DNA of 64,000 nt from Burkholderiaceae bacterium. GTDB taxonomy: Bacteria; Pseudomonadota; Gammaproteobacteria; Burkholderiales; Burkholderiaceae_C. The position numbers and the translations under genes were made by a program. Positions 2 to 42,877 of the stretch are shown one piece after another (the stretch's first letter is position 1; the number at the start of each line of letters is the position of its first letter). The stretch is taken from NCBI GenBank assembly GCA_038125525.1, contig JAYPEA010000005.1, positions 2,207-66,206 on the forward strand. Direction: 5' to 3'. Below the pieces are notes generated by a model that was not told the origin of the DNA, made no database searches, and saw only the letters and a list, made by a program, of their open reading frames with translations.

Positions 2-958
2 CCTGGCTTGGGCGGTGTGCTGGTACTGGGCGACCGCGGCACCGGCAAAAGCACGGCGGTGCGCGGCTTGGCTGCCTTGCTGCCCACGCAGGCCGTGGTG
101 CCGGGTTGCCGCTACGGCTGCAGCCCGCTTAGCCCACCGCAGGCCTGCCCCGACTGCCGCACGCTGCGCGCTGCGGGCACAAAGGCCAAACGGCCGGTGC
201 AGGCCCCCGTGCCGGTGGTGGATTTGCCGCTGGGCGCCACCGAAGACCGCATTGTGGGGGCGTTGGACTTGGAGCGCGCGTTGGGCAGCGGTGTGAAGGC
301 CTTTGAGCCCGGCCTGCTGGCCCGCGCCAACCGCGGGTTTTTGTACATCGACGAGGTGAACCTGCTGGAAGACCACCTGGTGGACTTGTTGATTGACGTG
401 GCCGCCTCGGGCGAGAACGTGGTGGAGCGCGAGGGCTTAAGCGTACGCCACCCGGCCAAGTTTGTGCTGGTAGGCAGCGGCAACCCCGAAGAGGGCGAGC
501 TGCGCCCGCAGCTGCTGGACCGCTTTGGCCTGGCCGTGGAAGTGCGCACCCCCACCGACTTGCCGACCCGGGTGGAGGTGGTGAAGCGCCGCGACGCGTT
601 TGAGCAAGACCCCGAGGGGTTTTGCACGGCCTGGCAAGACGCCACCCAACAACTGCGCCAGCAACTGCAAAAAGCGCAAAAACGATTGGCCAAGGTGGTG
701 GTGCCCGACGCCGCGCTGGAGCGGGCCGCGGCGCTTTGCACCGTGCTGGGCACCGATGGCCTGCGCGGTGACCTGACCCTGGTGCGTGCCGCACGCGCCT
801 TGGCCGCGTGGCAAGGCAGCAAAACGGTACGCGACAGCCACTTGCGCGACGTGGCCGCGCCTGCCTTACGCCACCGCCTGCGCCGCAACCCGCTGGACGA
901 CACCGGCAGCGGCACGCGGGTGGCGCGCGCCGTGGCCGAGTGCTGGGGTGAAGCCTAA
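2..958 (+). CDS. bchI: Magnesium chelatase ATPase subunit I (5'-truncated by window edge)
   Basis: Walker A GDRGTGKST, FEPGLLARANRGFLYIDEVNLL, GSGNPEEGELRPQLLDRFG; the frame is open to the window start. Confidence 0.96.
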   Translation, partial: PGLGGVLVLGDRGTGKSTAVRGLAALLPTQAVVPGCRYGCSPLSPPQACPDCRTLRAAGTKAKRPVQAPVPVVDLPLGATEDRIVGALDLERALGSGVKAFEPGLLARANRGFLYIDEVNLLEDHLVDLLIDVAASGENVVEREGLSVRHPAKFVLVGSGNPEEGELRPQLLDRFGLAVEVRTPTDLPTRVEVVKRRDAFEQDPEGFCTAWQDATQQLRQQLQKAQKRLAKVVVPDAALERAAALCTVLGTDGLRGDLTLVRAARALAAWQGSKTVRDSHLRDVAAPALRHRLRRNPLDDTGSGTRVARAVAECWGEA

Positions 959-2684
959 CTTGACCAACGCCGACGCGCCGCCACTGACCGGGGCGCTTAA
1001 CCCCGCGGCGCACGCCGCGGCCATGCTGCTGGCAGTAGACCCGCTGGCCTTGGGTGGGGCCGTGTTGCACGCGCCCGCCTCGCCCGTGCGCGACGCCTGG
1101 CTGGCACAGCTGCGCGCGCACCTGCCACCAGAGACGGTGTGGCGGCGCGTGCCGCACCACGCCGACCGCGACGCCCTGCTGGGTGGCCTGGACGTGGCCG
1201 CCACCCTACAAAGCGGGCGCCGGGTGCAACACGTTGGTGTGCTGCAAGCCACCACCGCCCAACTGCTGCTGTGCCCCATGGCCGAGCGCATGCCCCGCGA
1301 CCGCGCGGCGTGGCTAGCCACCGCCCTGGACGACCACGCGCCCACCGCGCTGCTGCTGCTGGACGAACACCACGACGACGAACCCGAACAACAAGTGGTC
1401 CACGCGCTGCGCGACCGGTTGGCGCTGCACGTGACGCTGCACGGCATGGCGCAAGAGGCCCCGGCATGGACCGCAATCGACGTGCAACGCGCGCGCCGCA
1501 CGTGGACCAAGGTGCACGTGGAGGACGCCGTGCGCCACGACGCCTGCGCCTTGGCCACGGCGCTGGGCGTGCCCAGCCTGCGCGCCCCCTTGCAGCTGCT
1601 GCGCGTGGCGCGCATGGTGGCCGCGCTGCAAGGGCAGCCCGCGGTTGACCAAGCCGCGCTGACGCTGGCCATGGTGTGGGTGCTGGCGCCGCGTGCCACG
1701 CAACTGCCCGAGGCACCCGCCGAGCCCGAGGCGCAACAGGCCCCACCACCCCCCAGCCAACCCACCGATCCTGCTAACAACAACGACCTCACCCAAACGG
1801 GCCCAACCGAGGCGCTGCCACCACAGGTGTTGGCCGCGGCGCAGGCGGCGATTCCGCCGGGGCTGCTGGCCATGCTGCAACAAGGCATGCTGCGCGGCGT
1901 GGCCGCAGGCAGCGCACGGCAGCAACCAACCAGCGGCGCCAGCGGGCGTGGCCGGCCTGTGGGTGCACGCCGTGGCACACCCCACGCCAAGGCTCGGCTG
2001 CACGTGCTCGAGACCTTACGCGCTGCGGCGCCGTGGCAAACCCTGAGACGACGAGAAGCGGGTGACGCCGCGCGCGGCCTGCACGTGGTGCGTGACGACC
2101 TGCGCGTGTGGCGCCACAAGCCGCGCGGCCAAACCACCACGGTGTTTGTGGTGGATGCCTCGGGCTCGGCCGCGCTGCACCGCTTGGCCGAGGCCAAGGG
2201 CGCGGTGGAACTGCTGCTGGCCGAGTGCTACGTGCGCCGCGACCGCGTGGCGCTGCTGGCCTTTGGCGGCGCCAGCGCACAAACCTTGCTGCCCCCAACC
2301 CGCGCGCTGGCGCGCGCCAAACGCAGCTTGGCCGCCCTACCCGGTGGCGGCGGCACGCCCTTGGCCAGCGCCATTGAGCACGCGCAAGCCGTGGCGACCG
2401 CCATACGGCGCGAGCAACAACGCCCAGTGGTGGTGATGCTGACCGATGGCCGTGCCAATGTGGCCCGCGACGGCAGCCCTGGGCGCGAACAAGCCAGCGC
2501 CGACGCCCTGGCCGCCGCACGCGCCTTTGCCACGGACGGTGTGTCCGTGCTGTGGCTGGACACCGCCGTACGCCCCCAAGCCGACGCCGTCCAACTGGCC
2601 GCAGCCATGGGCGCGCGCTACCTGCCCATGCCGCACGCCACCGCCGAGCGCATGGCGCAAGCCGTGCAACACGCCAGCGGCTAA
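948..2684 (+). CDS. bchD: Magnesium chelatase subunit D
   Basis: Degenerate AAA-like N-terminus, Pro/Gln-rich linker, C-terminal vWA domain with MIDAS DASGS; follows bchI. The start (GTG 948 or TTG 960) is an estimate. Confidence 0.92.
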   Translation: MKPNLTNADAPPLTGALNPAAHAAAMLLAVDPLALGGAVLHAPASPVRDAWLAQLRAHLPPETVWRRVPHHADRDALLGGLDVAATLQSGRRVQHVGVLQATTAQLLLCPMAERMPRDRAAWLATALDDHAPTALLLLDEHHDDEPEQQVVHALRDRLALHVTLHGMAQEAPAWTAIDVQRARRTWTKVHVEDAVRHDACALATALGVPSLRAPLQLLRVARMVAALQGQPAVDQAALTLAMVWVLAPRATQLPEAPAEPEAQQAPPPPSQPTDPANNNDLTQTGPTEALPPQVLAAAQAAIPPGLLAMLQQGMLRGVAAGSARQQPTSGASGRGRPVGARRGTPHAKARLHVLETLRAAAPWQTLRRREAGDAARGLHVVRDDLRVWRHKPRGQTTTVFVVDASGSAALHRLAEAKGAVELLLAECYVRRDRVALLAFGGASAQTLLPPTRALARAKRSLAALPGGGGTPLASAIEHAQAVATAIRREQQRPVVVMLTDGRANVARDGSPGREQASADALAAARAFATDGVSVLWLDTAVRPQADAVQLAAAMGARYLPMPHATAERMAQAVQHASG

Positions 2685-2690
2685 TTGGCC

Positions 2691-3650
2691 ATGCAAGAGG
2701 CCGCTGCCCCGCCCCACTGGCGCACCGAGGGCCCCACCTGGCCACACCACGCGCGCAGCCGCTTTGTGGCTGCAGGCGGCATGGCTTGGCACGTGCAGCA
2801 CTGGCCCGAGCCCAATCGGCCCACGCCCAACCCACCCACACCAACGCGCGTGTTGCTGCTGCACGGCACCGGCGGCAGTACCCATTGCTGGCGTGGCGTG
2901 GCGCCGTGGTTGGCGCAACACGCCGAGGTGCTGGCGCTGGACTTACCCGGTCACGGCTTTAGCGCGGCACCGGCTAACCCACAAGGCATGAGCCTGCACG
3001 GCATGGCGCAGGGTGTGGCCGCGCTGCTGGCGGATTGGCCTTACACGCCCGACATGGTGGTGGGCCACTCGGCCGGCTGCGCCGTGGCGGTGCGCATGGC
3101 GCTAAACGGGCAACTGCCCAACACCCGGCTGCTGGTGGGCATTGGCGCGGCGCTGCTGCCCTGGCAAGGGTTGCCAGGCAAATGGTTTGGCCCATTGGCG
3201 CGCGGCCTGGCCAGCCTGGGGCCGGTGCCCAAATGGTTTGCGGGTTGGGCCAACAAGCCCGCCGTGCTGCAAAGCCTGGTGGACAGCACCGGCTCAACCT
3301 TGAGCGACGAATCGTTGGCCTTGTGGCAGCGGCTGGTGGCAAGGCCCGAGCACGCGCAAGCCACGCTGCGCATGATGGCCGAGTGGGACTTGCCCGCCCT
3401 GCAACACGACCTGCCCCACCTGGCCACGCCGCTGTGTTTGCTGCACGGCAGCCGCGACACCACCGTGCGCCCGAGTCAGTCGCACCGCGCCGCACAACAC
3501 GTAACACCCGCCGTGCGCGCGGGCGTACACGAGTGGCCCACGCTGGGGCACTTGGCACCCGAAGAGGCGCCCGAGCAAGTGGCGCAAAGCCTATGGGAGG
3601 TGTGGCAGGGGCGGCAGGGGTGGCAGCACGCCAACGCCCGCGGCGCTTAG
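2691..3650 (+). CDS. bchO: Alpha/beta hydrolase BchO (Mg-chelatase accessory)
   Basis: LLLHGTGGSTH, DLPGHGFS, GHSAG nucleophile elbow; bchI-D-O synteny. Confidence 0.88.
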   Translation: MQEAAAPPHWRTEGPTWPHHARSRFVAAGGMAWHVQHWPEPNRPTPNPPTPTRVLLLHGTGGSTHCWRGVAPWLAQHAEVLALDLPGHGFSAAPANPQGMSLHGMAQGVAALLADWPYTPDMVVGHSAGCAVAVRMALNGQLPNTRLLVGIGAALLPWQGLPGKWFGPLARGLASLGPVPKWFAGWANKPAVLQSLVDSTGSTLSDESLALWQRLVARPEHAQATLRMMAEWDLPALQHDLPHLATPLCLLHGSRDTTVRPSQSHRAAQHVTPAVRAGVHEWPTLGHLAPEEAPEQVAQSLWEVWQGRQGWQHANARGA

Positions 3651-4258
3651 CGCGGCAGCTGGGCCAGACGTTGCTGCACGGTTTGCGCCAGCGGCGCATC
3701 GGCCGGTAGCTGCTGCAGCGCGCGCTGCCAGTGGGCTCGGGCCTGCTGGGTTTGCTGCTGCTCAAGCGCGGCCATCCCCGCCAACACCAAAGCCTGCGCG
3801 TGATCGGGGCTGAGTTGCAGCGCGCGCTCAAGCCACCGCGCGGGTTCGCCCGCGAGCGAGCCGCCGCGCGCCATGGCGGTTACGTCGGCACGCATTACCC
3901 ACCAGTCGGCTTGGCTGGCATCGATGGCCACGGCCTTGGCCAAGGCTTCGGCGGCGTCGGCCCAGCGCTGCATGGCGGCGTACGATTTGGCCAGCATATG
4001 CCAGCCTTGGGCGTTGGTTTGACCGTCTGGGCCTTGCAGCTTGGCCTCTAGGCGTTGCACCATGGCTTGCACCAACGGGGTTTGGGTTACGTCGTTGGGT
4101 GGCGCAGCCTCGGCCGCTGCTGGCGCCGGTTGAGCGGGCGTGGCAACAGGCGGGCCGCCGGCCAGCAACCACGCCGGCTGCCCAAGCACGGCGTAAACGG
4201 CAACGGCCAGCGCGGCCACGCCCAGCCACACCGTCCAGCGTAAACCGCGCTCAGTCAT
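3647..4258 (-). CDS. ccmI: TPR-containing cytochrome c maturation chaperone, CcmI/CycH-like (short form)
   Basis: One N-terminal TM segment, then TPR-like repeats (GWHMLAKSY..., ERALQLSPDHAQALVLAG); ATGA-coupled to ccmH. Confidence 0.7.
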   Translation of the reverse strand: MTERGLRWTVWLGVAALAVAVYAVLGQPAWLLAGGPPVATPAQPAPAAAEAAPPNDVTQTPLVQAMVQRLEAKLQGPDGQTNAQGWHMLAKSYAAMQRWADAAEALAKAVAIDASQADWWVMRADVTAMARGGSLAGEPARWLERALQLSPDHAQALVLAGMAALEQQQTQQARAHWQRALQQLPADAPLAQTVQQRLAQLPR

Positions 4259-4662
4259 GACTTACCCGGCTGCGGCTTGGCCCGCGTGACGCGCCACCAG
4301 CCCAGCGCCGCGATCAGCAACAGCGCGGCTGGCAAAAACCACAGCGGCCACGTGCTGGGCTTGAGCGGCGGGCGGTAGCGCACGAAGTCGCCGTAGCGTT
4401 GCGTCATGTACTCAAGCACCTGCGCCTCGCTTTGGCCTTGGGCCAGCATGCGCCTAACCTGGTTGCGCAAGTCCACGGCCAACGGCGCTTGCGAGGCGGC
4501 AATGGTGTCGTTTTGGCACACCAGGCAACGCAGCTCGCTGGCCACGCGTTGCACCTGGTCCTCTAGCGTGGGGTTGGCACGCGCCAAATCGGCGTACCCC
4601 ATGGCCAAGCTCAACACCACGGCCCGTACGCCCAACCCGCGCATAAGACGCGGCCTAGCCAT
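4255..4662 (-). CDS. ccmH: Cytochrome c-type biogenesis protein CcmH
   Basis: LRCLVCQN motif, YGDFVRYRPP, C-terminal TM helix; start ATG 4662 overlaps the ccmG stop by 8 bp. Confidence 0.92.
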   Translation of the reverse strand: MARPRLMRGLGVRAVVLSLAMGYADLARANPTLEDQVQRVASELRCLVCQNDTIAASQAPLAVDLRNQVRRMLAQGQSEAQVLEYMTQRYGDFVRYRPPLKPSTWPLWFLPAALLLIAALGWWRVTRAKPQPGKS

Positions 4663-5197
4663 GGCGTTGCGCCAACAAGGGCAACAGCGTGGATTGCACC
4701 CATTGCGGCGTGACCACACCGGTGTGTTTGTGCCGCACGCGGCCTTGCGGGTCAATCACGTAGGTCTCGGGCACGCCGTACACGCCTAAGTCTATGCCCA
4801 CGCGGCCGTCCACGTCGTGCCATACGGTGTGGTACGGGTTGCCGCGCTGCGCCAGCCATTGTTGCGCGGCGGGGCTGGCGTCTTTGTAGTTCAGCCCCAC
4901 CAACGTAACGCGCTGGCTTTGCGCCAACTGCAGCAACACCGGATGCTCAACCGCGCACGGCGTGCACCACGAGGCCCACACGTTAAGCACCCACCACTGG
5001 CCGCGCCAGGCCTGTGAGCTAACCGCCGCGGCGGGCTTACCCAACGCAGGCAGCGCAAACGCCGGCAAGGGTTGGCCGATGAGTGGCGAGGGCACCTCGC
5101 GCGGGTTCAGCCTAAGCCCCACGCCCAAGGCCACGCACAGCAAGGCAAAGCCCGCCAGCGCCAGCCAAGGCCCCAGGCGGCGCGGTGCCCGTGTCAT
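4655..5197 (-). CDS. ccmG: Thiol:disulfide interchange protein CcmG/DsbE
   Basis: N-terminal TM anchor, LNVWASWCTPC thioredoxin motif, GVYGVPETY. Confidence 0.95.
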   Translation of the reverse strand: MTRAPRRLGPWLALAGFALLCVALGVGLRLNPREVPSPLIGQPLPAFALPALGKPAAAVSSQAWRGQWWVLNVWASWCTPCAVEHPVLLQLAQSQRVTLVGLNYKDASPAAQQWLAQRGNPYHTVWHDVDGRVGIDLGVYGVPETYVIDPQGRVRHKHTGVVTPQWVQSTLLPLLAQRHG

Positions 5198-7134
5198 GCG
5201 GCCTGCGCCGGCGGCAGCGCCGCGCGCCGGTCAAACGCCGCCATGAGGCCGCCCAAGGCCATCATCAAGCAGCCCAGCCATATCCAGTTCACCAGCGGCT
5301 TGTGGTGCACGCGAAAGGCAAAGGCGTCGTTGCCCAGCGATTCGCCCAGGGCCACGTAAACGTCGCGCCACAGGCTGCGGTCAATCGCCACCTCGGTCAT
5401 GGTTTGGCCGTTGGCCAGGTACAAGCGTCGCTCGGGCTCAAGCGTGGTGACCGTTTGGCCGTGTTGCTGCATGGGCAGACGGGCGCGTACCGCAAAGTAG
5501 TTGGGCCCGGGCGCCATGGTGACGCCGTCAAAGCGCAACTCAACGTTGCCCACGGCAATCGCCTGGCCCGGGCGCAGCCGCACGTCTTGCTCGTGCCCCC
5601 AGGTGGAGACCGCCGCCACGCCAAGGGCGAACACCGCAACACCCAAGTGCGCCAACCACATGCCGCCTTTGGCGCCGCGCAGCGCCCGCCAGCGCGCCGA
5701 GGCGGGCAAACGCTGGCGCCACCACTGCACCATGTGCTGCGCCACGCCAAACGTGAGCCACGCGGCCAAGGCCAACCCGCCCCACGTGGCCCACGACGCG
5801 CCCGGCACCCACCACACCACCGCCGTGGCCGCGCCCACGGCCAACCCGGCCACCAGCATCCACGCGCGCCAAGGCGCCCTGCCAGCGGCGCGGCGCCAAG
5901 CCAGCACCGGGCCGGGCACCATCAGCAACATCACCAGCAGCATCAAGGGCACAAACACGGCTTCAAAGTACGGCGGCCCCACCGACAACTTACCGAGCCC
6001 CATGGCATCAAGCAGCATGGGGTATAGCGTGCCCAGCAGCACACTGGCCGCGGCCACCATGAGCAGCAAGGTTTGGCCAAACAACAAACCCTCGCGCGAC
6101 CAGCCTTGAAAGCTTGCCCCCACGCCCACCGTGGGCGCACGCCAAGCGTAAAGCGCTAGCGCACCGCCCACCACCAGCGCCAAAAAAACCAAAATAAACA
6201 AACCGCGCCCGGGGTCTGAGGCGAACGCGTGCACCGAGCTGAGCACACCCGAGCGCACGATGAACGTGCCAAGCAACGCCAGCGCAAAGCCCAGCAGCGC
6301 CAGCAGCGCCGTCCATAGCCTGAAGCTGCCGCGCGCATCGGCCATGGCCGCGCTGTGCAACAACGCCGTGGCCACCAACCAGGGCATGAACGAGGCGTTT
6401 TCTACCGGGTCCCAAAACCACCAACCACCCCAGCCCAGTTCGTAGTACGCCCAAAAACTGCCCAAGGCAATGCCCACGGTTAAAAACGCCCAAGCCACCA
6501 GCGTCCACGGGCGTATGGCGCGCGCCCAGGCCGAGCCCAACTCGCCTTGCAGCAGCCCGGCCACGGTATAGGCAAAGGCCACCACCAAACCCACGTAACC
6601 CATGTACAGCAGCGGCGGATGCCACACCATGCCGGGGTCTTGCAGCAAGGGATTCATGCCTTGCCCGTCGGCCGGCACCGGCCAGGCGCGCAAAAACGGA
6701 TTGGACGTGAACAGCAAAAACGCCAAAAAGCCCACGCCAATAAGCCCCATTACGCCCAGCACGCGGGCGCGCTGCACGGCGCAAGCGCTGCGCGTGCGCC
6801 ATGCCACGGCCAACGTCCAACCAGCCAGCACCCACACCCACAGCAGCATGGAGCCCTCGTGGTTGCCCCACACCGCGGTGTAGCGGTACACCAGGGGCAG
6901 CGCCGAGTGGGCGTAACCGGCCACCAGCGCAACCGAGAAGTCGGTGTGCACAAACGCCCAGGTGAGCGCGCCAAACGCCAGCGTGACCGTGGCCGCTTGC
7001 ACTGCCACCAGACGCGGGGCAAAGCGCATCCACGCCGCATCGCCGCGCGCCGCACCACCCAAGCCAAGCACGGCCAGCGCCACGCTGGCAGCCAGTGCCA
7101 CGCTGAGGGCCAGATGGCCAAGCTCAACAATCAC
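5194..7134 (-). CDS. ccmF: Heme lyase CcmF
   Basis: MIVELGH start, [34 protein letters not shown] motifs; 646 aa polytopic membrane protein. Confidence 0.97.
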
Positions 7135-7592
7135 GGCTGCGACGCCACCTGCGTGCGCGTGGCTGCACCCGCGGCTTGCAGCGCCGCAGCGGCTTCGGGC
7201 GGCATGTAGTTTTCGTCGTGCTTGGCCAGCACTTGCTGCGCCACAAACCAGCCATCGGCAGCCAACGTGCCTTGCGCCACCACGCCTTTGCCCTCGCGAA
7301 ACAAGTCGGGCAACATACCGGCGTAACGCACCGGCACGTGGTGCGCGCCGTCGGTAACCACAAAACTCACCTGTAAGCCCGAGCCCGAGCCCGCACGCTG
7401 CACGCTGCCTTGCTGCACCAACCCGCCAACACGAAAGGCGCGTGTGGTGGGCGCTTGCTGCGCGGCCACTTGCGTGGGGCTATAAAAAAACACCAAGTTG
7501 CTCTCAAAGGCGCGCAACACCAAGGTGGCTGCCCCGCCCAGTGCCAACAACGCCGCGCCCAACCACAGCATGCGCCAACGCTTGGCCGTCAT
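7131..7592 (-). CDS. ccmE: Heme chaperone CcmE
   Basis: NLVFFYSP, Y[15 protein letters not shown], heme-binding LAKHDENY (HxxxY); ATG 7592 overlaps the ccmD stop. Confidence 0.96.
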
Positions 7593-7765
7593 GACGACTC
7601 CAGCCCGATGTCCCAGGCTTGGTCTTGCGCCGGGCGCTGCAGCGCGCGCCGCTGCCACGCCAGCACCATCCATTCGGCCAGCAGCACCAGCAGCGTCACG
7701 CCCACGGCGCCCCACACGTACCAACCCCGCCCGCCCATGCTGAACCACACTTCCAGCGTGCTCAT
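7589..7765 (-). CDS. ccmD: Heme exporter protein CcmD
   Basis: 58 aa, [13 protein letters not shown] plus TM helix plus basic tail; ATGA-coupled on both sides, between ccmC and ccmE. Confidence 0.85.
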
Positions 7766-8514
7766 GCTTGACTCTCCTGTTCGTTCAGCGCGCGCTGCGC
7801 CCATGTGGTGTGCCGCTCGCGGCGCAACAAAATCAATCGCAACCTCGCCAACACCGCCGCCAGCGTGTAACACCACGCCGCAGCCACCATGATGAGCATG
7901 GCGTGCAACATGGGCTCGGCCATGCGTGAACCGCTGGGCCCAATCGAGGCGCCCTGGTGCAAGGTGTTCCACCACACCACCGAAAAGTAAATCACCGGCA
8001 CATTGATGGCACCCACAATGGCCAACAAACTCGCCGCGCGGTCGGCGCGGTGCGCGTCTTCGATGCTGGCGTGCAGCGCCATGTAGCCCAGGTACAAAAA
8101 CAACAGCAACAACTCAGAGGTTAGGCGCGCGTCCCACACCCACCAGGTGCCCCAGGTGGGTTGGCCCCACAGCGCGCCGGTCCATAGCGCCACAAAGGTC
8201 ATGAGCGCGCCAGTGGGCGCCAAGGCCTGCGCCATCATGTGCGACAGGCGCGACTGCCAAATCAAACCCGCCGCTGCCCAGCCCGCCATGGCCAGGTAAA
8301 TCACCATGGACATCCACGCCGCGGGCACGTGCACAAACACAATGCGGTACACCTCGCCTTGTTGCGCGTCGGTTGGCGCTTGCCACAAGCCCAGGTAAAA
8401 GCCCCAGGCACCCAGCACCACGGCAGCGCCCAGCAACCACGGCTGCAAGGTTTGCGCCAAGCGGTAGCAGCGCGACGGCGCAGCAAAATAAAACCAGTTG
8501 ATACGGGTGCCCAT
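7762..8514 (-). CDS. ccmC: Heme ABC transporter permease CcmC
   Basis: HVPAAW, WWD domain [24 protein letters not shown]. Confidence 0.96.
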
Positions 8515-8516
8515 GC

Positions 8517-9233
8517 CTAGCCCTCCACCGCCATGCGTACCGCGCTGGCCACCGCCCACGGCAAGCCCACCACAGCCAACAACGCCATGGCCGCCAGCAG
8601 CGACAAGTGCGCCGCCACCACCTCGGGTGGCTGCCCCACGGCGCCCGCACCCAGCACCAACAAAGGCACCGTAAGCGGCAGCACCAACAAGGCCAACAAC
8701 ACCGCGCCACTGCGTACGCCCAGCACCAGCGCGGCGGCCACCGCGCCCAGCAAACACAACACCGGCAGCCCCAACAACAAGCCCGCCACCAACACCACCA
8801 GGGCCGAGGCCGAAAGCCCATACGGCACAGCCAACAACGGGCTGAGCGCCACCAGCGGCAGCAAAGCCAACGCGCCGTGCGTGGCCACCTTAACCAACAT
8901 CAACAACGCCAACGGGTGCGGCGACAACACCATTTGCTCCAAGGTGCCGTCTTGCCAATCGTCGTGAAACCAGCGCGGCAACGTGCCCAGCGTGGCCAAC
9001 ACGGCGGCCACCCAAATCACGCCCGGGCCCATGCGCTGCAGCAGCTGCGGCTCAGGCCCCACGGCCAGCGGAAACAACGCCGCCACCACCAAGAAAAAAC
9101 ACCACGCCGCGGCCAAATCGGCGCGTTGGCGCCACTGGCTGGCCACCGTGGCGCGCAACACCACGCCCAGGCTTACCCAGGCGCTGGCTAACTCGCGTGC
9201 GGGGGCCGCGCCCCAGGCCACCGACGCCGTCAT
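8517..9233 (-). CDS. ccmB: Heme exporter permease CcmB
   Basis: FPLAVGPEPQLL, DDWQDGTLEQ, LLVLPLTVPLLVLG; six-TM character; ATG overlaps the ccmA stop. Confidence 0.94.
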   Translation of the reverse strand: MTASVAWGAAPARELASAWVSLGVVLRATVASQWRQRADLAAAWCFFLVVAALFPLAVGPEPQLLQRMGPGVIWVAAVLATLGTLPRWFHDDWQDGTLEQMVLSPHPLALLMLVKVATHGALALLPLVALSPLLAVPYGLSASALVVLVAGLLLGLPVLCLLGAVAAALVLGVRSGAVLLALLVLPLTVPLLVLGAGAVGQPPEVVAAHLSLLAAMALLAVVGLPWAVASAVRMAVEG

Positions 9234-9847
9234 AGTGCCAACCGCCTCAGCCCGGCGTAGGCGTGGCCGGTTTGCCCATGCGCAGTAAACACCACGGCCC
9301 CACCACCGTGCACGTGGCGCTGCATGAGTTGTTGCAACCAACCGGTGGCGCGCTCGTCCAGCGCGACAAAGGGCTCGTCCAGCAGCCACAGCGCTGGCGC
9401 CCCGGGTAAGCCCAACCGGGCCAGCGCCGCCAAGCGGCGTTGCCCCTGCGACAAGCGTCCTACCGGCCGGCCGGCCACGGCGCTCAGGCCGCAGGCGTCC
9501 AAGGTGGCGTCCATGGCCTGCCGGTTAACCGCTTGCCCAGCCAGCGCGCAACCCAGGGTCAAATTGGCACGCGCATCAAGATTAGCTTTTTGTGCCGGCA
9601 CCGGCCCAATCCACGCCATGTGCTCGCGCATGGCGCGCCAGTTGTCACCCAACAACGGCTGGCCATGCCACAGCATGTGCCCCTGACCCAGCGGAAACAA
9701 ACCCGCCAAGGAGCGCAGCAACGTGGTTTTGCCCGCGCCGTTGGCCCCTTCAATCTGCCAGGTTTGCCCGCCCAGCACCTGCAAGCCCAGGCCACGCACC
9801 AACCAGCGGTGGCCGCGTTGCAGACCCACATCAATTAAAGCGAGCAT
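9230..9847 (-). CDS. ccmA: Heme ABC exporter ATP-binding protein CcmA
   Basis: Walker A GANGAGKTT, signature LSQGQRR, Walker B LWLLDEP; heads the ccm operon. Confidence 0.93.
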   Translation of the reverse strand: MLALIDVGLQRGHRWLVRGLGLQVLGGQTWQIEGANGAGKTTLLRSLAGLFPLGQGHMLWHGQPLLGDNWRAMREHMAWIGPVPAQKANLDARANLTLGCALAGQAVNRQAMDATLDACGLSAVAGRPVGRLSQGQRRLAALARLGLPGAPALWLLDEPFVALDERATGWLQQLMQRHVHGGGAVVFTAHGQTGHAYAGLRRLAL

Positions 9848-9862
9848 GGAATCACCGGTCAG

Positions 9863-9880
9863 TGTCAACTAATAGTGACA
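9863..9880. promoter_or_regulatory. PpsR/CrtJ box, 15 bp upstream of the ccmA start
   Basis: TGTCAACTAATAGTGACA, an exact TGT-N12-ACA palindrome. Confidence 0.8.
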
Positions 9881-9918
9881 CTTGTAGCACATTCATATAA
9901 ATGACACAAGCGAACGAC

Positions 9919-9951
9919 TTGACATTCTAAGGTGTCGTGTTAAATTGACAC
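9919..9951. promoter_or_regulatory. Putative overlapping divergent sigma70 promoters (crtE rightward, ccmA leftward)
   Basis: Plus strand: TTGACA(9919-24)-N16-TAAATT(9941-46). Minus strand: GTGTCA(9951-46)-N16-TAGAAT(9929-24). Motif match only. Confidence 0.45.
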
Positions 9952-9976
9952 TACGTGATGTCACACTCTTTTTACA
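9933..9976. promoter_or_regulatory. Tandem PpsR/CrtJ boxes 8 bp apart, upstream of crtE
   Basis: TGTCGTGTTAAATTGACA (9933-9950) and TGTCACACTCTTTTTACA (9959-9976), both exact TGT-N12-ACA with the classic 8-bp spacing. Confidence 0.88.
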
Positions 9977-9997
9977 ACTGTACCGATCGGGGGCCCC

Positions 9998-10888
9998 ATG
10001 GACATGCGCAAACGGATTGAGCAGGCGCTGGCGCGCCAGCTGGCCCCAGCACCCCACCACGGGGCGCCACCCAAGTTGCTGCAGGCCATGCGGCATGCGG
10101 TGTTTCCCGGCGGGGCGCGCATACGGCCCCAGCTTTGCTTGGCGGTGGCGCAGGCCTGCGCCTGCGATGCCCCGGGCTTGGCCTTGGGCGGCGCGGTGGG
10201 GGTCGAGCTGTTGCACTGCGCCTCGTTGGTGCACGACGACATGCCCTGCTTTGATGACGCCGACACCCGACGCGGCCGCCCCAGCGTGCAGCGCCAATAC
10301 GGTGAGCCGCTGGCCCTGCTCACAGGGGATGCCTTGATTGTGCTGGCTTTTGAGGTGCTTACTGACCCCGATGTTGGCCATGCCGAGCGCGCCTTGGCCA
10401 TGCAACGCACGCTGGCGCAAGCGGCCGGCTCGCCCGCGGGTGTGGTGGCTGGTCAGGCCTGGGAGTGCGAAACGGAAGTGGATTTGTCTCAGTACCAGCG
10501 CGCCAAAACCGGGGCGCTATTTGTGGCCGCCACCACGTTGGGCGCGCAAGCCGCCGGCGCCCCGCCCGAGCCCTGGCAAGCGCTGGGTGAGCAGCTGGGC
10601 GAGGCGTATCAGGTGGCCGACGACATTCGCGACGTGGTGGGCGACGCGGCCGAGTTGGGCAAACCGGTGGGCCAAGACCAAGCCCACGACCGGCCCAACG
10701 CGATGCAAACGCTGGGCTTGTCGGGGGCGCTTAAGCGCTTTGAATCGCTCATGCAAGACGCCGTGGCCGCCGTGCCCGCCTGCCCGCAGCAAAGCGCCAT
10801 GCGCGAGCTGGTGCGGCACGAGGCATTGCGCTTGGTGCCACAGCTGTCGATTGCCTGGCGCCACCCCAACCCTCGCGCCACCGCGTAG
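9998..10888 (+). CDS. crtE: Geranylgeranyl diphosphate synthase
   Basis: FPGGARIRPQL, ASLVHDDMPCFDDADTRRG (FARM), QVADDIRD (SARM). Confidence 0.96.
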   Translation: MDMRKRIEQALARQLAPAPHHGAPPKLLQAMRHAVFPGGARIRPQLCLAVAQACACDAPGLALGGAVGVELLHCASLVHDDMPCFDDADTRRGRPSVQRQYGEPLALLTGDALIVLAFEVLTDPDVGHAERALAMQRTLAQAAGSPAGVVAGQAWECETEVDLSQYQRAKTGALFVAATTLGAQAAGAPPEPWQALGEQLGEAYQVADDIRDVVGDAAELGKPVGQDQAHDRPNAMQTLGLSGALKRFESLMQDAVAAVPACPQQSAMRELVRHEALRLVPQLSIAWRHPNPRATA

Positions 10889-10892
10889 GCCG

Positions 10893-12092
10893 ATGCAACA
10901 AGTTCATGCCTCTGCCGGCGGCGCGGCGTTGAGCTGGTGGCAACGGCTGCAGCAAGCGCGGGGCGACTGGCTGGTCAACCCGCGGCTGCACCAATGGGCC
11001 AGCCGTAGCGTGCTGACGCGCTGGCTGGTACGGCGCCGGGCGCATCAACTGTTTGACGTGATGGCGGGCTTTGTGCACACGCAGGTGCTGCTGGCGTGCC
11101 TGGAGCTTGACCTGCTGGTGCGCCTGCAACGCAGCGGTGCGCAGGGTGCCGAAGCGCTAGCCAAAACGCACGACATACCGCTCGAGGCCATGACTGCCCT
11201 GCTCGACAGCGCGGTGCAGCTGGGCTTGCTACGCCGCCGTGGCCAGCGCTACACCCTTGGCCCCTTGGCCACGCCGCTGCTAACCCACGCCGGCATACGC
11301 GACATGGTGCAGCACAACGCGTTGCTGTACGCGGACATGCAACACCCCGTGGCGCTGATGCGCCAACCCCATACCAGCGCCATGCATCGGTTTTGGCTTT
11401 ATACCGATGGCAGCGACGGCCAGGACGCGCCATCGGCCGCGCCAAACCAGTGGTCAGCCCAAGGCGTGGCCGCTTACTCGGGGCTAATGGCCAGTTCGCA
11501 AAGCTTTTTGCGAGAGCAACTGCTGCAGGTGTACCCGTTTGCTCAGCACCAACACGTGATGGACGTGGGCGGTGGACAAGGCGCTTGGGTGGCCACCTTA
11601 GCCCAACGCGTGCCGAGTTTGCAGCTGACGCTGGTGGACTTGCCACCGGTGGCGGAGTTGGCCGAACAACGCCTAAATAGCGTGGGTTTGAAGGGCCGCG
11701 TGCAATGCCACGGCCTGCACTTTGCCCACGACAACCTGCCCGTAGGGGCCGACCTGATTACGCTGCTGCGCGTGGCACACGACCACCCCGACGAGGTGGT
11801 GCGCCAACTGATGCAAGCCTGCTGGCGCGCCCTGCCCGCCGGCGGCACGCTGCTGCTGGCCGAACCCATGGCCGAGCAGCCCGGCGGCGCCGCGCGCGTT
11901 GACCCCTACTACCACTTTTACCTGTTGGCCATGGGGCAAGGGCGCCTGCGCACGGCCAATCGCATTGCGCTGCTGATGTCTGAAGCAGGTTTTGTTCACA
12001 TTGAAAGCCTCCCTACGCCACTTCCGATGCACGGAGGCGTGGTGATTGGCCGAAAGCCCCTAGACAAAATCCAAACAAAACGGCCGAAATAA
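10893..12092 (+). CDS. crtF: Hydroxyneurosporene/demethylspheroidene O-methyltransferase
   Basis: LFDVMAGFVHTQVL, SAM motif MDVGGGQG, LLLAEPM; crtE-crtF-bchC synteny; ATG 5 nt after the crtE stop. Confidence 0.92.
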   Translation: MQQVHASAGGAALSWWQRLQQARGDWLVNPRLHQWASRSVLTRWLVRRRAHQLFDVMAGFVHTQVLLACLELDLLVRLQRSGAQGAEALAKTHDIPLEAMTALLDSAVQLGLLRRRGQRYTLGPLATPLLTHAGIRDMVQHNALLYADMQHPVALMRQPHTSAMHRFWLYTDGSDGQDAPSAAPNQWSAQGVAAYSGLMASSQSFLREQLLQVYPFAQHQHVMDVGGGQGAWVATLAQRVPSLQLTLVDLPPVAELAEQRLNSVGLKGRVQCHGLHFAHDNLPVGADLITLLRVAHDHPDEVVRQLMQACWRALPAGGTLLLAEPMAEQPGGAARVDPYYHFYLLAMGQGRLRTANRIALLMSEAGFVHIESLPTPLPMHGGVVIGRKPLDKIQTKRPK

Positions 12093-12105
12093 GGGTAAAC
12101 CCTAT

Positions 12106-12149
12106 GGTAAATTTTAATTGACACTTCATAATGTCAACAAATAAATACA
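12106..12149. promoter_or_regulatory. bchC promoter with tandem PpsR boxes 8 bp apart
   Basis: GGTAAATTTTAATTGACA (12106-23, one mismatch) and TGTCAACAAATAAATACA (12132-49, exact); TTGACA at 12118-23. Confidence 0.88.
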
Positions 12150-12150
12150 T

Positions 12151-13104
12151 ATGATGCTCGCCCCAGCCATTGTTTTCCAACAACCCTGCACCCTATCGGT
12201 GCAGCGGTTGGCGCTACGCCCCACGGAGCCCAGCGATGCGGTGATTCAGGTGCAACACAGCGGCATCAGCACGGGCACCGAACGCCTGCTCTGGGATGGC
12301 AGCATGCCGCCCTTTCCGGGGATGGGCTACCCCTTGGTGCCGGGTTACGAGAGCGTCGGCGTGGTGACTCAAGCCGATAAAGCGGGCCAGGTGGCGGTGG
12401 GTCAAACGGTGTTTGTACCAGGCTCGCGCAGCTTTGCCGACGTACACAACCTGTTTGGCGGCGCCGGCGGCACCTTGGTGGCCCCAGCCGACAAGCTGGT
12501 GGCCGTGCCCCCAGCCATGGGCGCCGATGCGCTGCTGCTGGCGCTGGCAGCTACGGCGTACCACAGCGTTTCGCGCGGCGGTAAAGAAACGCCGGCGGCC
12601 CCGCCCCAGTTGATTGTGGGGCACGGCGTAATGGGCCGGTTGCTCGCGCGCCTGACGGTGGCCGCTGGTGCCCCAGCACCCACGGTGTGGGAGACCCAAA
12701 CCGCGCGCATGGGCGGCGCCCAAGGCTACCGCGTATGCCACCCCAACGACGACGACCGCCACGACTACGCGAGCATTTACGACGTCAGCGGCGACCACGC
12801 CATGCTCAATCGCTTGATCGCGCGCTTAGCACATGGTGGCGAGGTGGTGCTGGCGGGGTTTTATCACGCGCCGCTGGCGTTTGATTTTGCGCCCGCGTTC
12901 ATGCGCGAAGCCCGCGTGCGCGTGGCTGCCGAGTGGAGCCGCTCGGACATGCGCGCCGTGTCGCAATTGCTGCAAGAGCGCCGCCTTGACCTTAGCGGTT
13001 TGGTGACGCATCACGCCACGCCTGCGCAGGCCCAACAAGCCTATGCCACCGCGTTTTCGGACGCCGACTGCCTGAAGATGGCCCTTGACTGGAGCAACAC
13101 ATGA
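12151..13104 (+). CDS. bchC: Chlorophyllide hydroxyethyl dehydrogenase BchC
   Basis: SGISTGTERLLWDGSMPPFPGMGYPLVPGYE; the start may be the second ATG at 12154. Confidence 0.96.
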   Translation: MMLAPAIVFQQPCTLSVQRLALRPTEPSDAVIQVQHSGISTGTERLLWDGSMPPFPGMGYPLVPGYESVGVVTQADKAGQVAVGQTVFVPGSRSFADVHNLFGGAGGTLVAPADKLVAVPPAMGADALLLALAATAYHSVSRGGKETPAAPPQLIVGHGVMGRLLARLTVAAGAPAPTVWETQTARMGGAQGYRVCHPNDDDRHDYASIYDVSGDHAMLNRLIARLAHGGEVVLAGFYHAPLAFDFAPAFMREARVRVAAEWSRSDMRAVSQLLQERRLDLSGLVTHHATPAQAQQAYATAFSDADCLKMALDWSNT

Positions 13105-17424: not shown

Positions 17425-17649
17425 ATGCCTGCTACGTCTTTGGTTTCGCACAAGCCACCACGCGCAAACGACAAGTTGGCGTCGTGGTTGATTTTTGCGC
17501 CCTGCTTTGTGCTGGTGCTCTCGGTTGCTTTGCTCGGTCAACTCGCCGGCATGCACTGGAAGGACTGGTTACCGGGTGCCGAGCATGCCCACGGCATGTT
17601 GGGCGGCGTCAAGGCGGCGGTCTACACCTTCATGTCCCACATCATTTAG
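17425..17649 (+). CDS. 74-aa single-TM membrane protein between pufB and pufA (unassigned; PufQ-like size and topology)
   Basis: Strong RBS AAGGAGGT; hydrophobic stretch [23 protein letters not shown]; the stop TAG overlaps the pufA RBS (AGGAG). Confidence 0.75.
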
Positions 17650-19790: not shown

Positions 19791-20816
19791 ATGTTGCAAT
19801 CATCCACACATTGGTTGGCGCGTGGTGCCAAGCTCGCGGCGTTGGCCTCACTGGTCACACTTGCCGCCTGCGAGCGCCCCCCCATGCAAAGCGAACAAAA
19901 CGGCTTTCGTGGCACGGGCATGGTGCAAGTGGTCAACCCACGCGCGCTGGAGGACAAGGTTGCCTTAAACGCTGTGCCCATGGCCACGCCGCAGGCTCCG
20001 GCTGAGGGGCCCAAGGCCTCGCAGATTTACCAAAACGTGCAAGTGCTGGGCGACTTGAGCGTGGGCCAGTTCACCCGCTTAATGGTGGCCATTACCAGCT
20101 GGATTGCACCACAAGAGGGCTGTAACTACTGCCACAACCCGGCCAATTTGGCCGAGGACAGCAAGTACACCAAGGTGGTGTCGCGGCGCATGATTGAGAT
20201 GACGCAAAACATCAACGCCAACTGGAAGACCCACGTGGCCGACACCGGGGTGACGTGCTACACCTGTCACCGGGGCCAGGCGGTGCCGTCTCAGGTTTGG
20301 TTTAAAGCCGACCAAGAGCCCAAAGGCGCAAACTTTATTGGCGACAAAGCTGGGCAAAACAGTCCGGCAGCCAGCGTCAAGTTGGCCTCGTTGCCCAACG
20401 ACCCGTTTACGCCGTTTTTGCTGGGCGATCATGCCATTCGCGTGAATGGCACCACCGCCTTGCCCACGGGCAACCGCAGCTCAATTAAGCAAACCGAGTG
20501 GACGTATGGGTTGATGGTGCACATGTCGGCCTCGCTGGGGGTGAACTGCACGTACTGCCACAACACGCGAGCGTTTTCGAGCTGGGAGGACGCCGCGCCA
20601 CAACGCGTGAAGGCTTGGCACGGCATTCGCATGGCGCGCGACGTGAACAATCAATACATCGCGCCGCTCACCGAGGTGTTTCCGGCCAACCGCAAGGGCG
20701 TGTTGGGCGACTTGGCCAAGGTCAATTGCGCCACCTGCCATCAGGGCGTGAACAAGCCGTTGTTGGGCGCCTCTATGCTTAAAGACTACCCCTCGCTGGC
20801 CAGCGGGGCCAAGTAA
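19791..20816 (+). CDS. pufC: RC-bound tetraheme cytochrome c subunit
   Basis: Lipobox-like LAAC/ERPP; four CxxCH motifs (CNYCH, CYTCH, CTYCH, CATCH). Confidence 0.98.
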   Translation: MLQSSTHWLARGAKLAALASLVTLAACERPPMQSEQNGFRGTGMVQVVNPRALEDKVALNAVPMATPQAPAEGPKASQIYQNVQVLGDLSVGQFTRLMVAITSWIAPQEGCNYCHNPANLAEDSKYTKVVSRRMIEMTQNINANWKTHVADTGVTCYTCHRGQAVPSQVWFKADQEPKGANFIGDKAGQNSPAASVKLASLPNDPFTPFLLGDHAIRVNGTTALPTGNRSSIKQTEWTYGLMVHMSASLGVNCTYCHNTRAFSSWEDAAPQRVKAWHGIRMARDVNNQYIAPLTEVFPANRKGVLGDLAKVNCATCHQGVNKPLLGASMLKDYPSLASGAK

Positions 20817-41366: not shown

Positions 41367-41380
41367 TTGTTTTGCCAGAC

Positions 41381-42823
41381 ATGACCGCGCGACAACCCCA
41401 ACCCAGTTTGAACTTCAGTCTGGCTGAACGCCACTTGGGCGGCTTGCACGCGTCCTCGGCGGCTTCGTTGCTTGCCGCCAGCGGCGACTTGGTGCTGCTG
41501 CTCGCCGCCAACGGTGACATTCTCGACCTCGCCTGCAGCCGTGAAGACCTGGCCAGTTGGAACTTAAGCGACTGGATAGGCCAGCCCTGGGAGCGCACCG
41601 TCACCGGTGAGAGCGTGCCCAAAATTCAAGCCATGCTGCAAGACGCCCAACGCGGCCAACCCGCGCAGTCGCGGCAAGTCAACCACCCCAGTCCCATGGG
41701 CAGCGACCTGCCAGTTGCCTACCGCGTGGTGCCGTTAGGCGATCGCGAGCACGCCGCGCAGTTTGCCGCCATTGGGCGAGACCTGCGCGACACCACACGC
41801 ATGCAGCAACGGCTGGTGGCCGCGCAAACCCAAATGGAGCGCGACCACTGGCAGGCGCAAGCCATTCAAACCCGCGCCCAAGCCATGATTGAGCTCAGCG
41901 GCGAGGCGCTGCTGGTGCTCGAGGCCGACCAATGGAGCCTGGTGCAAGCCAACACCGCAGCGCACCAGCTGCTGGGCCCCACCCTTGAGCAATCGGGCTG
42001 GACGCTGCTGGGGCAGCTGGGCCCAGCGGCCCGGCAAACCCTTATGCAACACGCCGCGCAGTTGCAATCAGGCGCCGGCCCACGCGTGGCGCACTTTAAT
42101 CTCGATCACCACGGCAACGTGTGGCAAGCCGCCTTGCAGCGCGCTGACGTGGGCGCCAGCAGCCAATGGCTGCTGCGCTTATCTGGCCACCCCACCGCCA
42201 CCGGCGAAACCGACCAAACCTGGGCGCCCATGGCCACCAGCGCGCCCGATGCGCTGCTGATCACCAACCCGTTGGGCATCATCGAGCACGCCAACCCCAG
42301 TTTTTTACGCGCCGTGCAGTGCACCAGCCCCGAGCAGGTGCTGGGTACCTCGCTTGAGACCTGGCTGGGGCGGCAAGAAGTCGATCAAAGCGTGCTGCTG
42401 TCCAACCTCAAACAACACGGCAGCGTGCGCTTGTTTGCCACCGAACTGCATGGCGCCCTGGGCACCAGCACAGAGGTAGAAATCTCCGCAGCCGCCATTG
42501 GCGAGAACCGCCCGGCTCGCTATGGCTTTGTGCTGCGCGACGTCAGCCGCCGCCTGGACGAAACCCCGAAAGAATTGCCGCGCACCGCCAGCGAAATGAC
42601 CGAACTCGTGGGGCGCCTGCCGCTCAAAGACATCGTGCGTGAAACCACCGACCTCATCGAGCAGTTGTGCATTCAGGCCGCGCTCGAGCTCACCGGCGAC
42701 AACCGCGCCTCAGCGGCCGAAATGCTCGGCCTGTCCCGACAAAGCCTCTACATCAAGCTGCGCCGCTTTCAACTGGGCGACGGCGTGGACGACACCACCG
42801 TGAAGACTGAAAGTCAAACCTAG
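41381..42823 (+). CDS. ppsR: Photosynthesis gene repressor PpsR/CrtJ
   Basis: PAS-type repeats, LVGRLPLKDIVRETTD.IE..CI..AL, Fis-type HTH NRASAAEMLGLSRQSLYIKLRR. Confidence 0.95.
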   Translation: MTARQPQPSLNFSLAERHLGGLHASSAASLLAASGDLVLLLAANGDILDLACSREDLASWNLSDWIGQPWERTVTGESVPKIQAMLQDAQRGQPAQSRQVNHPSPMGSDLPVAYRVVPLGDREHAAQFAAIGRDLRDTTRMQQRLVAAQTQMERDHWQAQAIQTRAQAMIELSGEALLVLEADQWSLVQANTAAHQLLGPTLEQSGWTLLGQLGPAARQTLMQHAAQLQSGAGPRVAHFNLDHHGNVWQAALQRADVGASSQWLLRLSGHPTATGETDQTWAPMATSAPDALLITNPLGIIEHANPSFLRAVQCTSPEQVLGTSLETWLGRQEVDQSVLLSNLKQHGSVRLFATELHGALGTSTEVEISAAAIGENRPARYGFVLRDVSRRLDETPKELPRTASEMTELVGRLPLKDIVRETTDLIEQLCIQAALELTGDNRASAAEMLGLSRQSLYIKLRRFQLGDGVDDTTVKTESQT

Positions 42824-42836
42824 TTGATTTTTTGAG

Positions 42837-42877
42837 TGTAAATATAAATTGACACACCCTGGCCCGCGCCACACAAT
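42837..42877 (+). promoter_or_regulatory. bchG promoter with PpsR box
   Basis: TGTAAATATAAATTGACA (42837-54, exact TGT-N12-ACA); TTGACA-N17-CACAAT ends 6 nt before the ATG. Confidence 0.82.

Follow-up and report, generated by a model that had tools for sequence, protein, structure and literature searches.

The stretch of DNA analysed here, hereafter the window, comprises 64,000 nucleotides of contig JAYPEA010000005.1 from a Burkholderiaceae bacterium (assembly GCA_038125525.1, positions 2,207 to 66,206) and carries a photosynthesis gene cluster (PGC). Within this cluster, between bchIDO and crtEF-bchCXYZ-pufBALMC, we found nine intact and translationally coupled genes, ccmA to ccmI (3647-9847, minus strand), which encode a System I cytochrome c maturation apparatus. 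A preliminary description made from the nucleotide sequence had reported such a nine-gene block between bchO and crtE in the opposite orientation, and hidden Markov model (HMM) scans of the window proteins, together with their translations, confirm it.

Gene identities were taken from the HMM scans, in which scores exceed the curated cut-offs wherever an equivalog model exists. The first gene, ccmA (9230..9847), encodes the 205 aa ABC ATPase of the haem-release complex (TIGR01189, 147.9 bits; cut-off 131.6), and its ATG at 9847 is the first start after the control region. It is followed by ccmB (8517..9233; 238 aa; TIGR01190, 169.8 bits), which begins in an ATGA overlap with the ccmA stop codon, and by ccmC (7762..8514; 250 aa; TIGR01191, 220 bits), whose product bears the WWD motif WGTWWVWD. 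The short ccmD gene (7589..7765), recognised by three-frame translation, encodes 58 aa with a single hydrophobic helix; it has ATGA overlaps with both ccmC and ccmE, and tblastn matched it to ccmD of the related genomes G007, G201 and G130. The haem chaperone gene ccmE (7131..7592; 153 aa; NF009729, 201.5 bits; cut-off 171) encodes an HDENY motif within KHDENY, and the haem lyase gene ccmF (5194..7134; 646 aa; TIGR00353, 685 bits; PF16327, 357 bits) encodes WGGWWFWD. The remaining genes are ccmG/dsbE (4655..5197; 180 aa; TIGR00385, 156.3 bits), for a thioredoxin-like protein with WCTPC; ccmH (4255..4662; 135 aa; PF03918, 144.6 bits), with LRCLVC and a start at 4662 placed by its signal-like N-terminus; and ccmI (3647..4258; 203 aa; PF23914, TPR_CcmH_CycH, 50.8 bits), a trimmed 'mini' form consisting of one helix and a tetratricopeptide (TPR) core. 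The features by which System I is recognised in sequence, namely the CcmABCD module, the HxxxY of CcmE, and the CcmF/CcmH lyase with CcmG as its thioreduction partner, are all present, and a full-length DsbD, the supplier of reductant, is encoded in the genome.

The genes are packed as tightly as the preliminary description had proposed. Of the eight junctions between neighbouring genes, six consist of a 4-bp overlap (ATGA or GTGA); in the other two, the genes overlap by 8 bp in one case and are separated by 2 nt in the other. At the distal end, the ccmI stop codon (3647-3649) meets the end of bchO at 3650 in a 4-bp tail-to-tail overlap, TTAG, also as first described. The block likewise appears free of insertion scars: a search of its flanks found no direct or inverted repeats above chance and no tRNA genes. 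The component that departs from the usual form is CcmI, which aligns to residues ~120-311 of the 400-470 aa CcmI found in all other relatives. It is without the first helix and cytoplasmic loop, and also without the C-terminal ~150 aa of those proteins, and its form recalls the TPR tail of CcmH in E. coli; the corresponding protein of G007, a genome of the same genus, has 199 aa.

Photosynthesis genes enclose the operon on both sides. Upstream lie bchI, bchD and bchO; bchO (2685..3650, plus strand; TIGR03056, 218.6 bits) is the last gene of bchIDO and is convergent with ccmI. On the other side, crtE (9998..10888, plus strand) is divergent from ccmA and is the first gene of crtEF-bchCXYZ-puf; its polyprenyl synthase matches include NF045685 (CrtE), and it occupies the same position in relatives. 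The downstream order is crtE, crtF, bchCXYZ, pufB, pufL, pufM, pufC, crtA and crtD, and the window further holds crtB, crtI, puhE, acsF, puhA, bchM, bchL, bchH, bchN, bchF, ppsR, bchG and bchP. The product of pufC (19791..20816, plus strand; NF040706, 500.7 bits) is the tetrahaem lipoprotein cytochrome of the reaction centre, with CxxCH at residues 111, 156, 253 and 313; as the preliminary description had noted, the window encodes no other canonical c-type cytochrome. The ppsR/crtJ gene (41372..42823, plus strand; TIGR02040, 397.7 bits; cut-off 275.4) encodes a repressor that presumably binds the palindromes described below. Between pufB and the puf genes that follow it, a 74-aa open reading frame (ORF) at 17425-17649 (plus strand) matches no NCBIfam model.

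The preliminary description had proposed looking for ccsA/resB or a second ccm set elsewhere in the genome. A whole-assembly search found no second ccm set and located a System II on contig C33, with ResB at 10584-12740 (PF05140, 420.6 bits) and CcsB (TIGR03144, 252 bits); a gene for a dihaem c4-type cytochrome precedes these genes, and engB adjoins them. The assembly (G000) represents a small freshwater-type Burkholderiales genome of 1.87 Mb, split over 116 contigs, with a completeness of 95.7% and a contamination of 0.62%. Its set of c-type cytochromes is small: besides the four-haem PufC and cytochrome c1, it comprises two dihaem proteins, one of them the c4-type protein encoded next to ResB, and three monohaem proteins. 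A third Cytochrom_C_asm (PF01578) gene of ~277 aa, at 2747-3409 of contig C77, lies outside both systems and is probably YpjD-like. As rpoB is split across two contig ends (C83 and C105), gene absences in this metagenome-assembled genome (MAG) need to be read with caution.

With ccm on contig C5 and resB on contig C33 of a 116-contig assembly, the two-system result could be false if the PGC contig had been binned from another, System-I-only organism. A mild offset in base composition might be taken in the same sense, as the GC content of third codon positions (GC3) is ~0.82-0.83 in bchD, bchO and ccmF, ccmG and ccmH (window 786-9868), compared with a median of 0.75 for long ORFs of the genome and 0.74-0.79 in other PGC genes. 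Against this, the contamination estimate is just 0.62%, the sister assembly G007 holds the same PGC-ccm block plus ResB, and a gene that lies outside the PGC on the same contig as the window shares 90% identity with its counterpart in G007. Since a single multi-megabase contig carries both systems in each of the relatives G118 and G201, the pairing of ccm with System II is not an artefact of binning in general, and we consider such an error scarcely credible for the window's genome.

We then compared gene content across 16 genomes of the genus (g1) and an even sample of 300 genomes of the family, many of which are fragmented MAGs; counts across relatives are not independent. In the genus, ResB was found in 13 of 16 genomes, including every near-complete one, the three misses being assemblies 66-90% complete. 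CcmF was present in 7/7 PufM-positive genomes versus 1/9 PufM-negative genomes, the latter being 75% complete, so that within the genus ccm does follow the PGC. To see which cytochromes share this distribution, we tested the four small c-type cytochromes and treated cytochrome c1 and the c4-type protein encoded next to ResB as housekeeping. Each of the four has orthologues in non-phototrophic congeners with System II alone, which leaves PufC as the only c-type cytochrome, of those compared, whose distribution tracks ccm within the genus. In the family sample CcmF was detected in 121/300 genomes, and the background view of the preliminary description, that System I is unusual in these bacteria, was therefore too strong. 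PufM was found in 48/300 genomes and PufC in the same 48; 33 of these 48 phototrophs have CcmF. System I is thus enriched among phototrophs, yet is not needed for making PufC, a point taken up below. In the nearest non-phototrophic relatives, a search of the surroundings of the ccm operons revealed no multihaem or Mtr-like clients.

Additional PufC-like genes were seen in a few relatives. In the phototroph G068, a PufC-like fragment at 1-843 of contig C394 (L118) lies ~5 kb from the ccm operon (5922-11863) and is 48-50% identical to PufC, with two CxxCH visible before the contig end; the true pufC is on another contig. A second PufC-like gene also occurs in G024, G240 and G145.

Synteny was examined by mapping the window proteins onto 10-20 kb around CcmF from 60 genomes. 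The exact layout bchD-bchO<ccmI..ccmA>crtE-crtF-bchCXYZ-pufLMC recurs in G007, G172, G321, G201, G183 (Burkholderiales bacterium PBB1) and G330, and so in four genera; the adjacency is no one-off. Variants in which ccm lies beside crtIB, bchIDO or a bchC-like gene were found in G227, G118, G024, G128 and G020, and in a second, type B, lineage of the window's own genus (G002, G003, G009 and G015). With these five further genera, the operon is PGC-linked in at least nine. With the ResB searches taken into account, ccm is PGC-linked in 12 of the 14 phototrophs that have both systems; in System-I-only phototrophs it is mostly outside the PGC, the exceptions being G183, G330 and G024. The operon is not universal in PGCs, as 15/48 PufM-positive genomes have no CcmF and in ~20 other phototrophs the ccm operon is away from any PGC gene. 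In the PGC studied here, the ccm operon is an integral and old part of the cluster rather than a one-off rearrangement. The bchC-like gene of the type B lineage and G020 is 55-62% identical to BchC of the window and lies a few kb from ccm (G003, L114, ~14313; G015, L153, ~1032; G009, L152, ~272; G020, L115, ~18638), and it is far from pufLM or on a different contig.

The history of the operon was examined in a tree of concatenated CcmC, CcmE, CcmF and CcmG from 36 taxa (LG+C20+F+G4, ultrafast bootstrap and SH-like approximate likelihood-ratio test). Here G172/G321 form the sister group of the window lineage (G000 and G008; support 98/96), and both fall with G201 and G227 inside a clade (100/99) whose members are all PGC-embedded in System II hosts. 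The next relatives are the System-I-only lineages G154/G308, G183/G330, G024/G237 and G099/G274, and a quick tree of 54 taxa agrees. In the PufL+M tree, the window lineage groups with G128 and G172/G321 (97). The second lineage of the genus groups with G167 in the PufLM tree (100), and with G167 and G128 in the Ccm tree. The RpoB tree, in contrast, recovers the genus as monophyletic (98) and places its two phototrophic lineages in different sub-clades, each beside non-phototrophs. In approximately unbiased (AU) tests, whose groups were defined once the first trees were at hand, monophyly of the genus was rejected by PufLM (p = 1e-51) and by CcmCEFG (p = 0.002), but not by CcmF alone (p-AU 0.10). 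The Ccm and PufLM trees agree in the foreign genera beside which they place the window, and neither is compatible with one origin in the genus; the block is therefore likely to have moved with the PGC. The simplest reading of these trees would be at least two separate acquisitions of the PGC-plus-ccm block in the genus, with at least one joint horizontal transfer. This fits the idea in the preliminary description of a transferable phototrophy module, with Ccm and PufLM trees that agree with each other and conflict with RpoB; a sole, vertically inherited locus brought into the PGC by a single rearrangement fits neither this conflict nor the recurring layout.

Two features of these trees qualify the picture. 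The window lineage sits on a very long branch in the Ccm trees (0.8-1.0 substitutions/site) and has a deviant amino-acid composition. ResB of this lineage (G000, G007 and G008) is likewise divergent, being ~57% identical to that of congeners compared with 86-91% for RpoB, which indicates that the acceleration is lineage-wide and not specific to ccm; membrane proteins of the window lineage seem to evolve unusually fast. There are also discordances between trees, involving the Ccm genes of G128 and PufLM of G227, and the ccm-PGC block is thus not immune to recombination. As to its origin, we suggest a donor lineage that had its sole ccm operon inside its PGC, as in G183 and G330, from which the block would have passed to System II hosts and there acquired a PpsR site; since the trees are unrooted, this direction is a suggestion only.

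A redundant operon that had been dragged in with the PGC might be kept simply by being wedged between two essential PGC operons, with no function of its own beside System II. The tight wedging itself, with the 4-bp bchO overlap and a promoter region common to ccm and crtE, would suit such a passenger, as would the very long branch and the half-length CcmI of the window lineage, and ccm genes do decay elsewhere, ccmF of the phototroph G148 having five in-frame TGA codons. We therefore compared the ratio of nonsynonymous to synonymous substitution rates (dN/dS) between G000 and G007, whose dS of 0.5-1.2 is near saturation. The ratio was 0.08-0.18 for eight ccm genes, including 0.18 for the trimmed CcmI, and 0.32 for ccmD; the photosynthesis genes bchO, bchD and crtF gave 0.12, 0.14 and 0.19, respectively. 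Such low ratios, together with intact catalytic motifs throughout, translational coupling and a dedicated promoter kept across genera, argue against a decaying passenger, which we consider improbable, and point to purifying selection on ccm genes that are in use. The G148 gene (contig C17, 28121-29341; L130) is a probable pseudogene, or else reflects recoding or an assembly problem; this PufM-positive genome is 66% complete.

The region from which the operon would be expressed is the spacer between the divergent ccmA and crtE genes (9848..9997), which has promoter-like elements on both strands. It contains TGT-N12-ACA palindromes of the PpsR type at 9863-9880, 9933-9950 and 9959-9976. On the ccm-sense strand, a -35-like TTGTGT and a -10-like TACAAG (9887-9882) are separated by a 17-nt spacer, and the -10-like element abuts the proximal palindrome. 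Three of the window's ten TGT-N12-ACA matches fall in these 150 bp, where ~0.03 would be expected. Over the whole window there is no enrichment (10 matches against 12.7 expected), and only the clustering of matches in intergenic control regions is meaningful. The same type of palindrome stands just upstream of bchC (12132-12149) and bchG (42837-42854), consistent with a PpsR regulon that extends across the PGC.

The arrangement in front of ccmA is conserved. A unit of TTTGTGT, 17 nt and TATAAG (TACAAG in the window), followed directly by TGTCA-N8-TGACA, was found in G000, G007, G172, G321, G201 and G227, and G118 and G128 have a similar palindrome upstream of ccmA. With the type B lineage and G020 left aside, 8/8 PGC-embedded operons of System II hosts have a palindrome of the TGTCA-N8-TGACA type, 14-92 nt in front of the ccmA match. 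None was seen upstream of 34 ccm operons outside PGCs, and G183 and G330, which have ccm as their sole system, lack it upstream of ccmA as well. From these sites we infer that PpsR binds and represses the ccm operon, which thus appears to be switched by the photosynthesis repressor. Since the palindrome abuts the -10 element of the ccm promoter, we propose that the operon would be switched on together with reaction-centre synthesis.

Taken together, these data lead us to favour, with some confidence, the view that the System I ccm operon is a resident set of the betaproteobacterial PGC, inherited and transferred with the cluster, and that it serves as an accessory, photosynthesis-switched system with PufC as its principal extra client. 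The housekeeping cytochromes, namely c1, c4 and the small monohaem proteins, would be served by the genus-wide System II (ResB/CcsB), and the PGC-borne ccm operon, expressed from a promoter of its own, would add a further system. Once PpsR repression is relieved by a change in oxygen or light, reaction centres and extra haem-attachment capacity would be produced from the same control region. CcmABCD would then load haem onto CcmE, and CcmF and CcmH, with the trimmed CcmI, would attach it to CxxCH sites kept reduced by DsbD and CcmG. The principal extra client would be the lipoprotein PufC, which places four haems in each reaction centre, and we infer that PufC is the main one. The gain may lie in regulated extra capacity, or in the greater affinity of System I for haem at a time when tetrapyrroles are being channelled into bacteriochlorophyll. 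A lower haem requirement of System I, reported in Richard-Fogal et al. 2007 (cited in PMC8805035), and resistance to interference from intermediates of the Mg branch are possible further benefits.

Several observations weigh against this view. Fifteen of the 48 PufM/PufC-bearing family genomes have ResB but no CcmF, and many of them are 98-100% complete. When we sought a feature of PufC that would separate genomes with and without ccm, none was found, the lipobox and the four CxxCH positions being the same in all. Since these 15 relatives make do with ResB and their PufC is alike, System I is not required for PufC; System II alone would evidently suffice in relatives without CcmF. In G183, G330 and G024, moreover, the PGC-embedded ccm operon is the sole maturation system. 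There it must serve all cytochromes, and location in the PGC alone does not imply a dedicated role. No PpsR palindrome was seen upstream of ccmA in the second lineage of the genus (G002, G003, G009 and G015) or in G020. On the phylogenetic side, the failure of CcmF alone to reject monophyly, the naming of the AU-test groups after the fact and the long, compositionally deviant branch of the window lineage count in the same direction.

Some of these observations would be expected if the operon were a general-purpose second system, acting on all c-type cytochromes alongside System II, with PufC as one client among several and the position in the PGC as a historical accident of the donor. In G183, G330 and G024 the embedded operon is the only maturation system of the cell; the Ccm clade of the System II hosts is nested among the System-I-only lineages G154/G308, G183/G330, G024/G237 and G099/G274; and PufC is evidently matured by System II alone in 15 relatives. 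The palindrome, however, is specific to System II hosts and missing where ccm is the sole system, which argues for conditional, photosynthesis-linked expression, and non-phototrophic congeners handle the same small cytochromes without ccm. On balance we regard a general-purpose role as unlikely, though it deserves more weight than the passenger explanation. A further reading, in which a System II host specifically needs System I for efficient PufC assembly during bacteriochlorophyll synthesis, either because haem is then scarce and the CcmE reservoir and higher affinity of System I matter, or because System II is inhibited by Mg- or Zn-porphyrins, seems to us equally doubtful. If there were such a need, the PGC would be a self-contained phototrophy cassette, its transfer range widened by its own PpsR-controlled haem-attachment machine, and the trimmed CcmI would be specialised for a membrane-anchored client.

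The operon might also have a role other than cytochrome c maturation, with CcmABCDE exporting or buffering haem so as to balance the haem and bacteriochlorophyll branches, or protecting the cell from free tetrapyrroles. The position of the operon among tetrapyrrole genes, adjoining the Mg-chelatase genes bchIDO, would be in keeping with this, and literature cited in PMC8805035 discusses non-cytochrome roles of System I as well as a haem-reservoir function. The lyase half of the system (CcmF, CcmG, CcmH and CcmI), dispensable for haem buffering alone, is nevertheless under purifying selection, and we found no direct evidence for a role of this kind, which we think very unlikely. Returning to the accessory, photosynthesis-switched system that we favour, the suggestion in the preliminary description that the PGC carries its own, possibly dedicated, machinery for PufC stands in part. 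The cluster does have its own System I, co-transferred with it and apparently co-regulated; dedication or need does not follow, given the PufC-bearing relatives with ResB alone and the three genomes in which the embedded operon is the only system. PufC is most likely the reason for the presence of ccm in the PGC, as the client of an accessory system and not of a required one, and exclusive dedication of ccm to PufC is unproven.

The PGC is a classic example of a large mobile metabolic module, and its contents are usually described as genes for pigments, the reaction centre, antennae, assembly and regulation. In several Burkholderiales genera, a full set of genes for attaching the cofactor of its own cytochrome subunit can be added to this list. 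With the cluster, System I enters hosts equipped with another maturation system, where it seems to be controlled by the repressor of the PGC itself, and this widens the idea of a transferable phototrophy module. Hosts of this kind are also a natural test bed for Systems I and II in one cell, with regard to client choice, haem economy and regulation, and their relatives cover all combinations: both systems, System II only with PufC, and PGC-borne System I only.

In its components the operon closely resembles canonical System I (ccmABCDEFGH-I, or cycHJKL) as described in E. coli and Rhodobacter capsulatus. It has the same nine components in the single-operon order of the E. coli type, and the same motifs, namely WWD in CcmC and CcmF, HxxxY in CcmE, CxxC in CcmG and LRCxxC in CcmH. 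It differs in lying inside a PGC, in coexisting with System II and in having a PpsR-type palindrome in front; its CcmI has 203 aa compared with 400-470 aa in relatives, and by sequence criteria it is otherwise ordinary. In Rhodobacter, the ccm genes are found in several split loci outside the PGC. The control region recalls the bch, crt and puc promoters of purple bacteria that are repressed by PpsR/CrtJ, whose architecture is known from Rhodobacter: palindromes overlap or abut the -10 element, paired sites are 8 bp apart, and ppsR is in the cluster. Unlike the known members of that regulon, the target here is a set of ccm genes, and the PpsR site is a predicted one. We know of no report of ccm genes as PpsR targets. 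A search of full-text literature found no report of ccm genes in a PGC, although its coverage of work on Limnohabitans PGCs was incomplete and an earlier depiction in a figure is possible.

A looser parallel is found in Nitrospira, where comammox members have System I and canonical members System II, and a higher haem or iron economy has been proposed as the advantage of the former (Palomo et al. preprint, 10.1101/138586). In both cases System I is found in a lineage that acquired a haem-rich module, and System II in its relatives. In Nitrospira this is described as a replacement, or contrast, between lineages, whereas here a regulated second system lies inside the module of a System II host. 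The closest precedent is the complete ccmA-I operon carried as a passenger beside horizontally transferred mtrCAB clusters, largely in Betaproteobacteria of the Comamonadaceae type (Baker et al. 2022, mBio, PMC8805035). Those genomes have no duplicate System I, four strains have System II elsewhere, and the authors take ccm and its client to be mobile as a linked unit (PMC8805035). As in the mtrCAB case, a complete ccmA-I operon here stands beside a client cluster with which it has a common history, and System II is encoded elsewhere. It differs in that the client is the PGC with PufC, in that the operon is wedged between PGC operons rather than placed at the edge, and in the PpsR site before ccmA. 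Passenger ccm operons are thus known from mtrCAB clusters, and ccm in a PGC is, as far as the literature searched extends, a new form of these; the parallel suggests that such an association may be general among multihaem modules in bacteria of the Comamonadaceae type.

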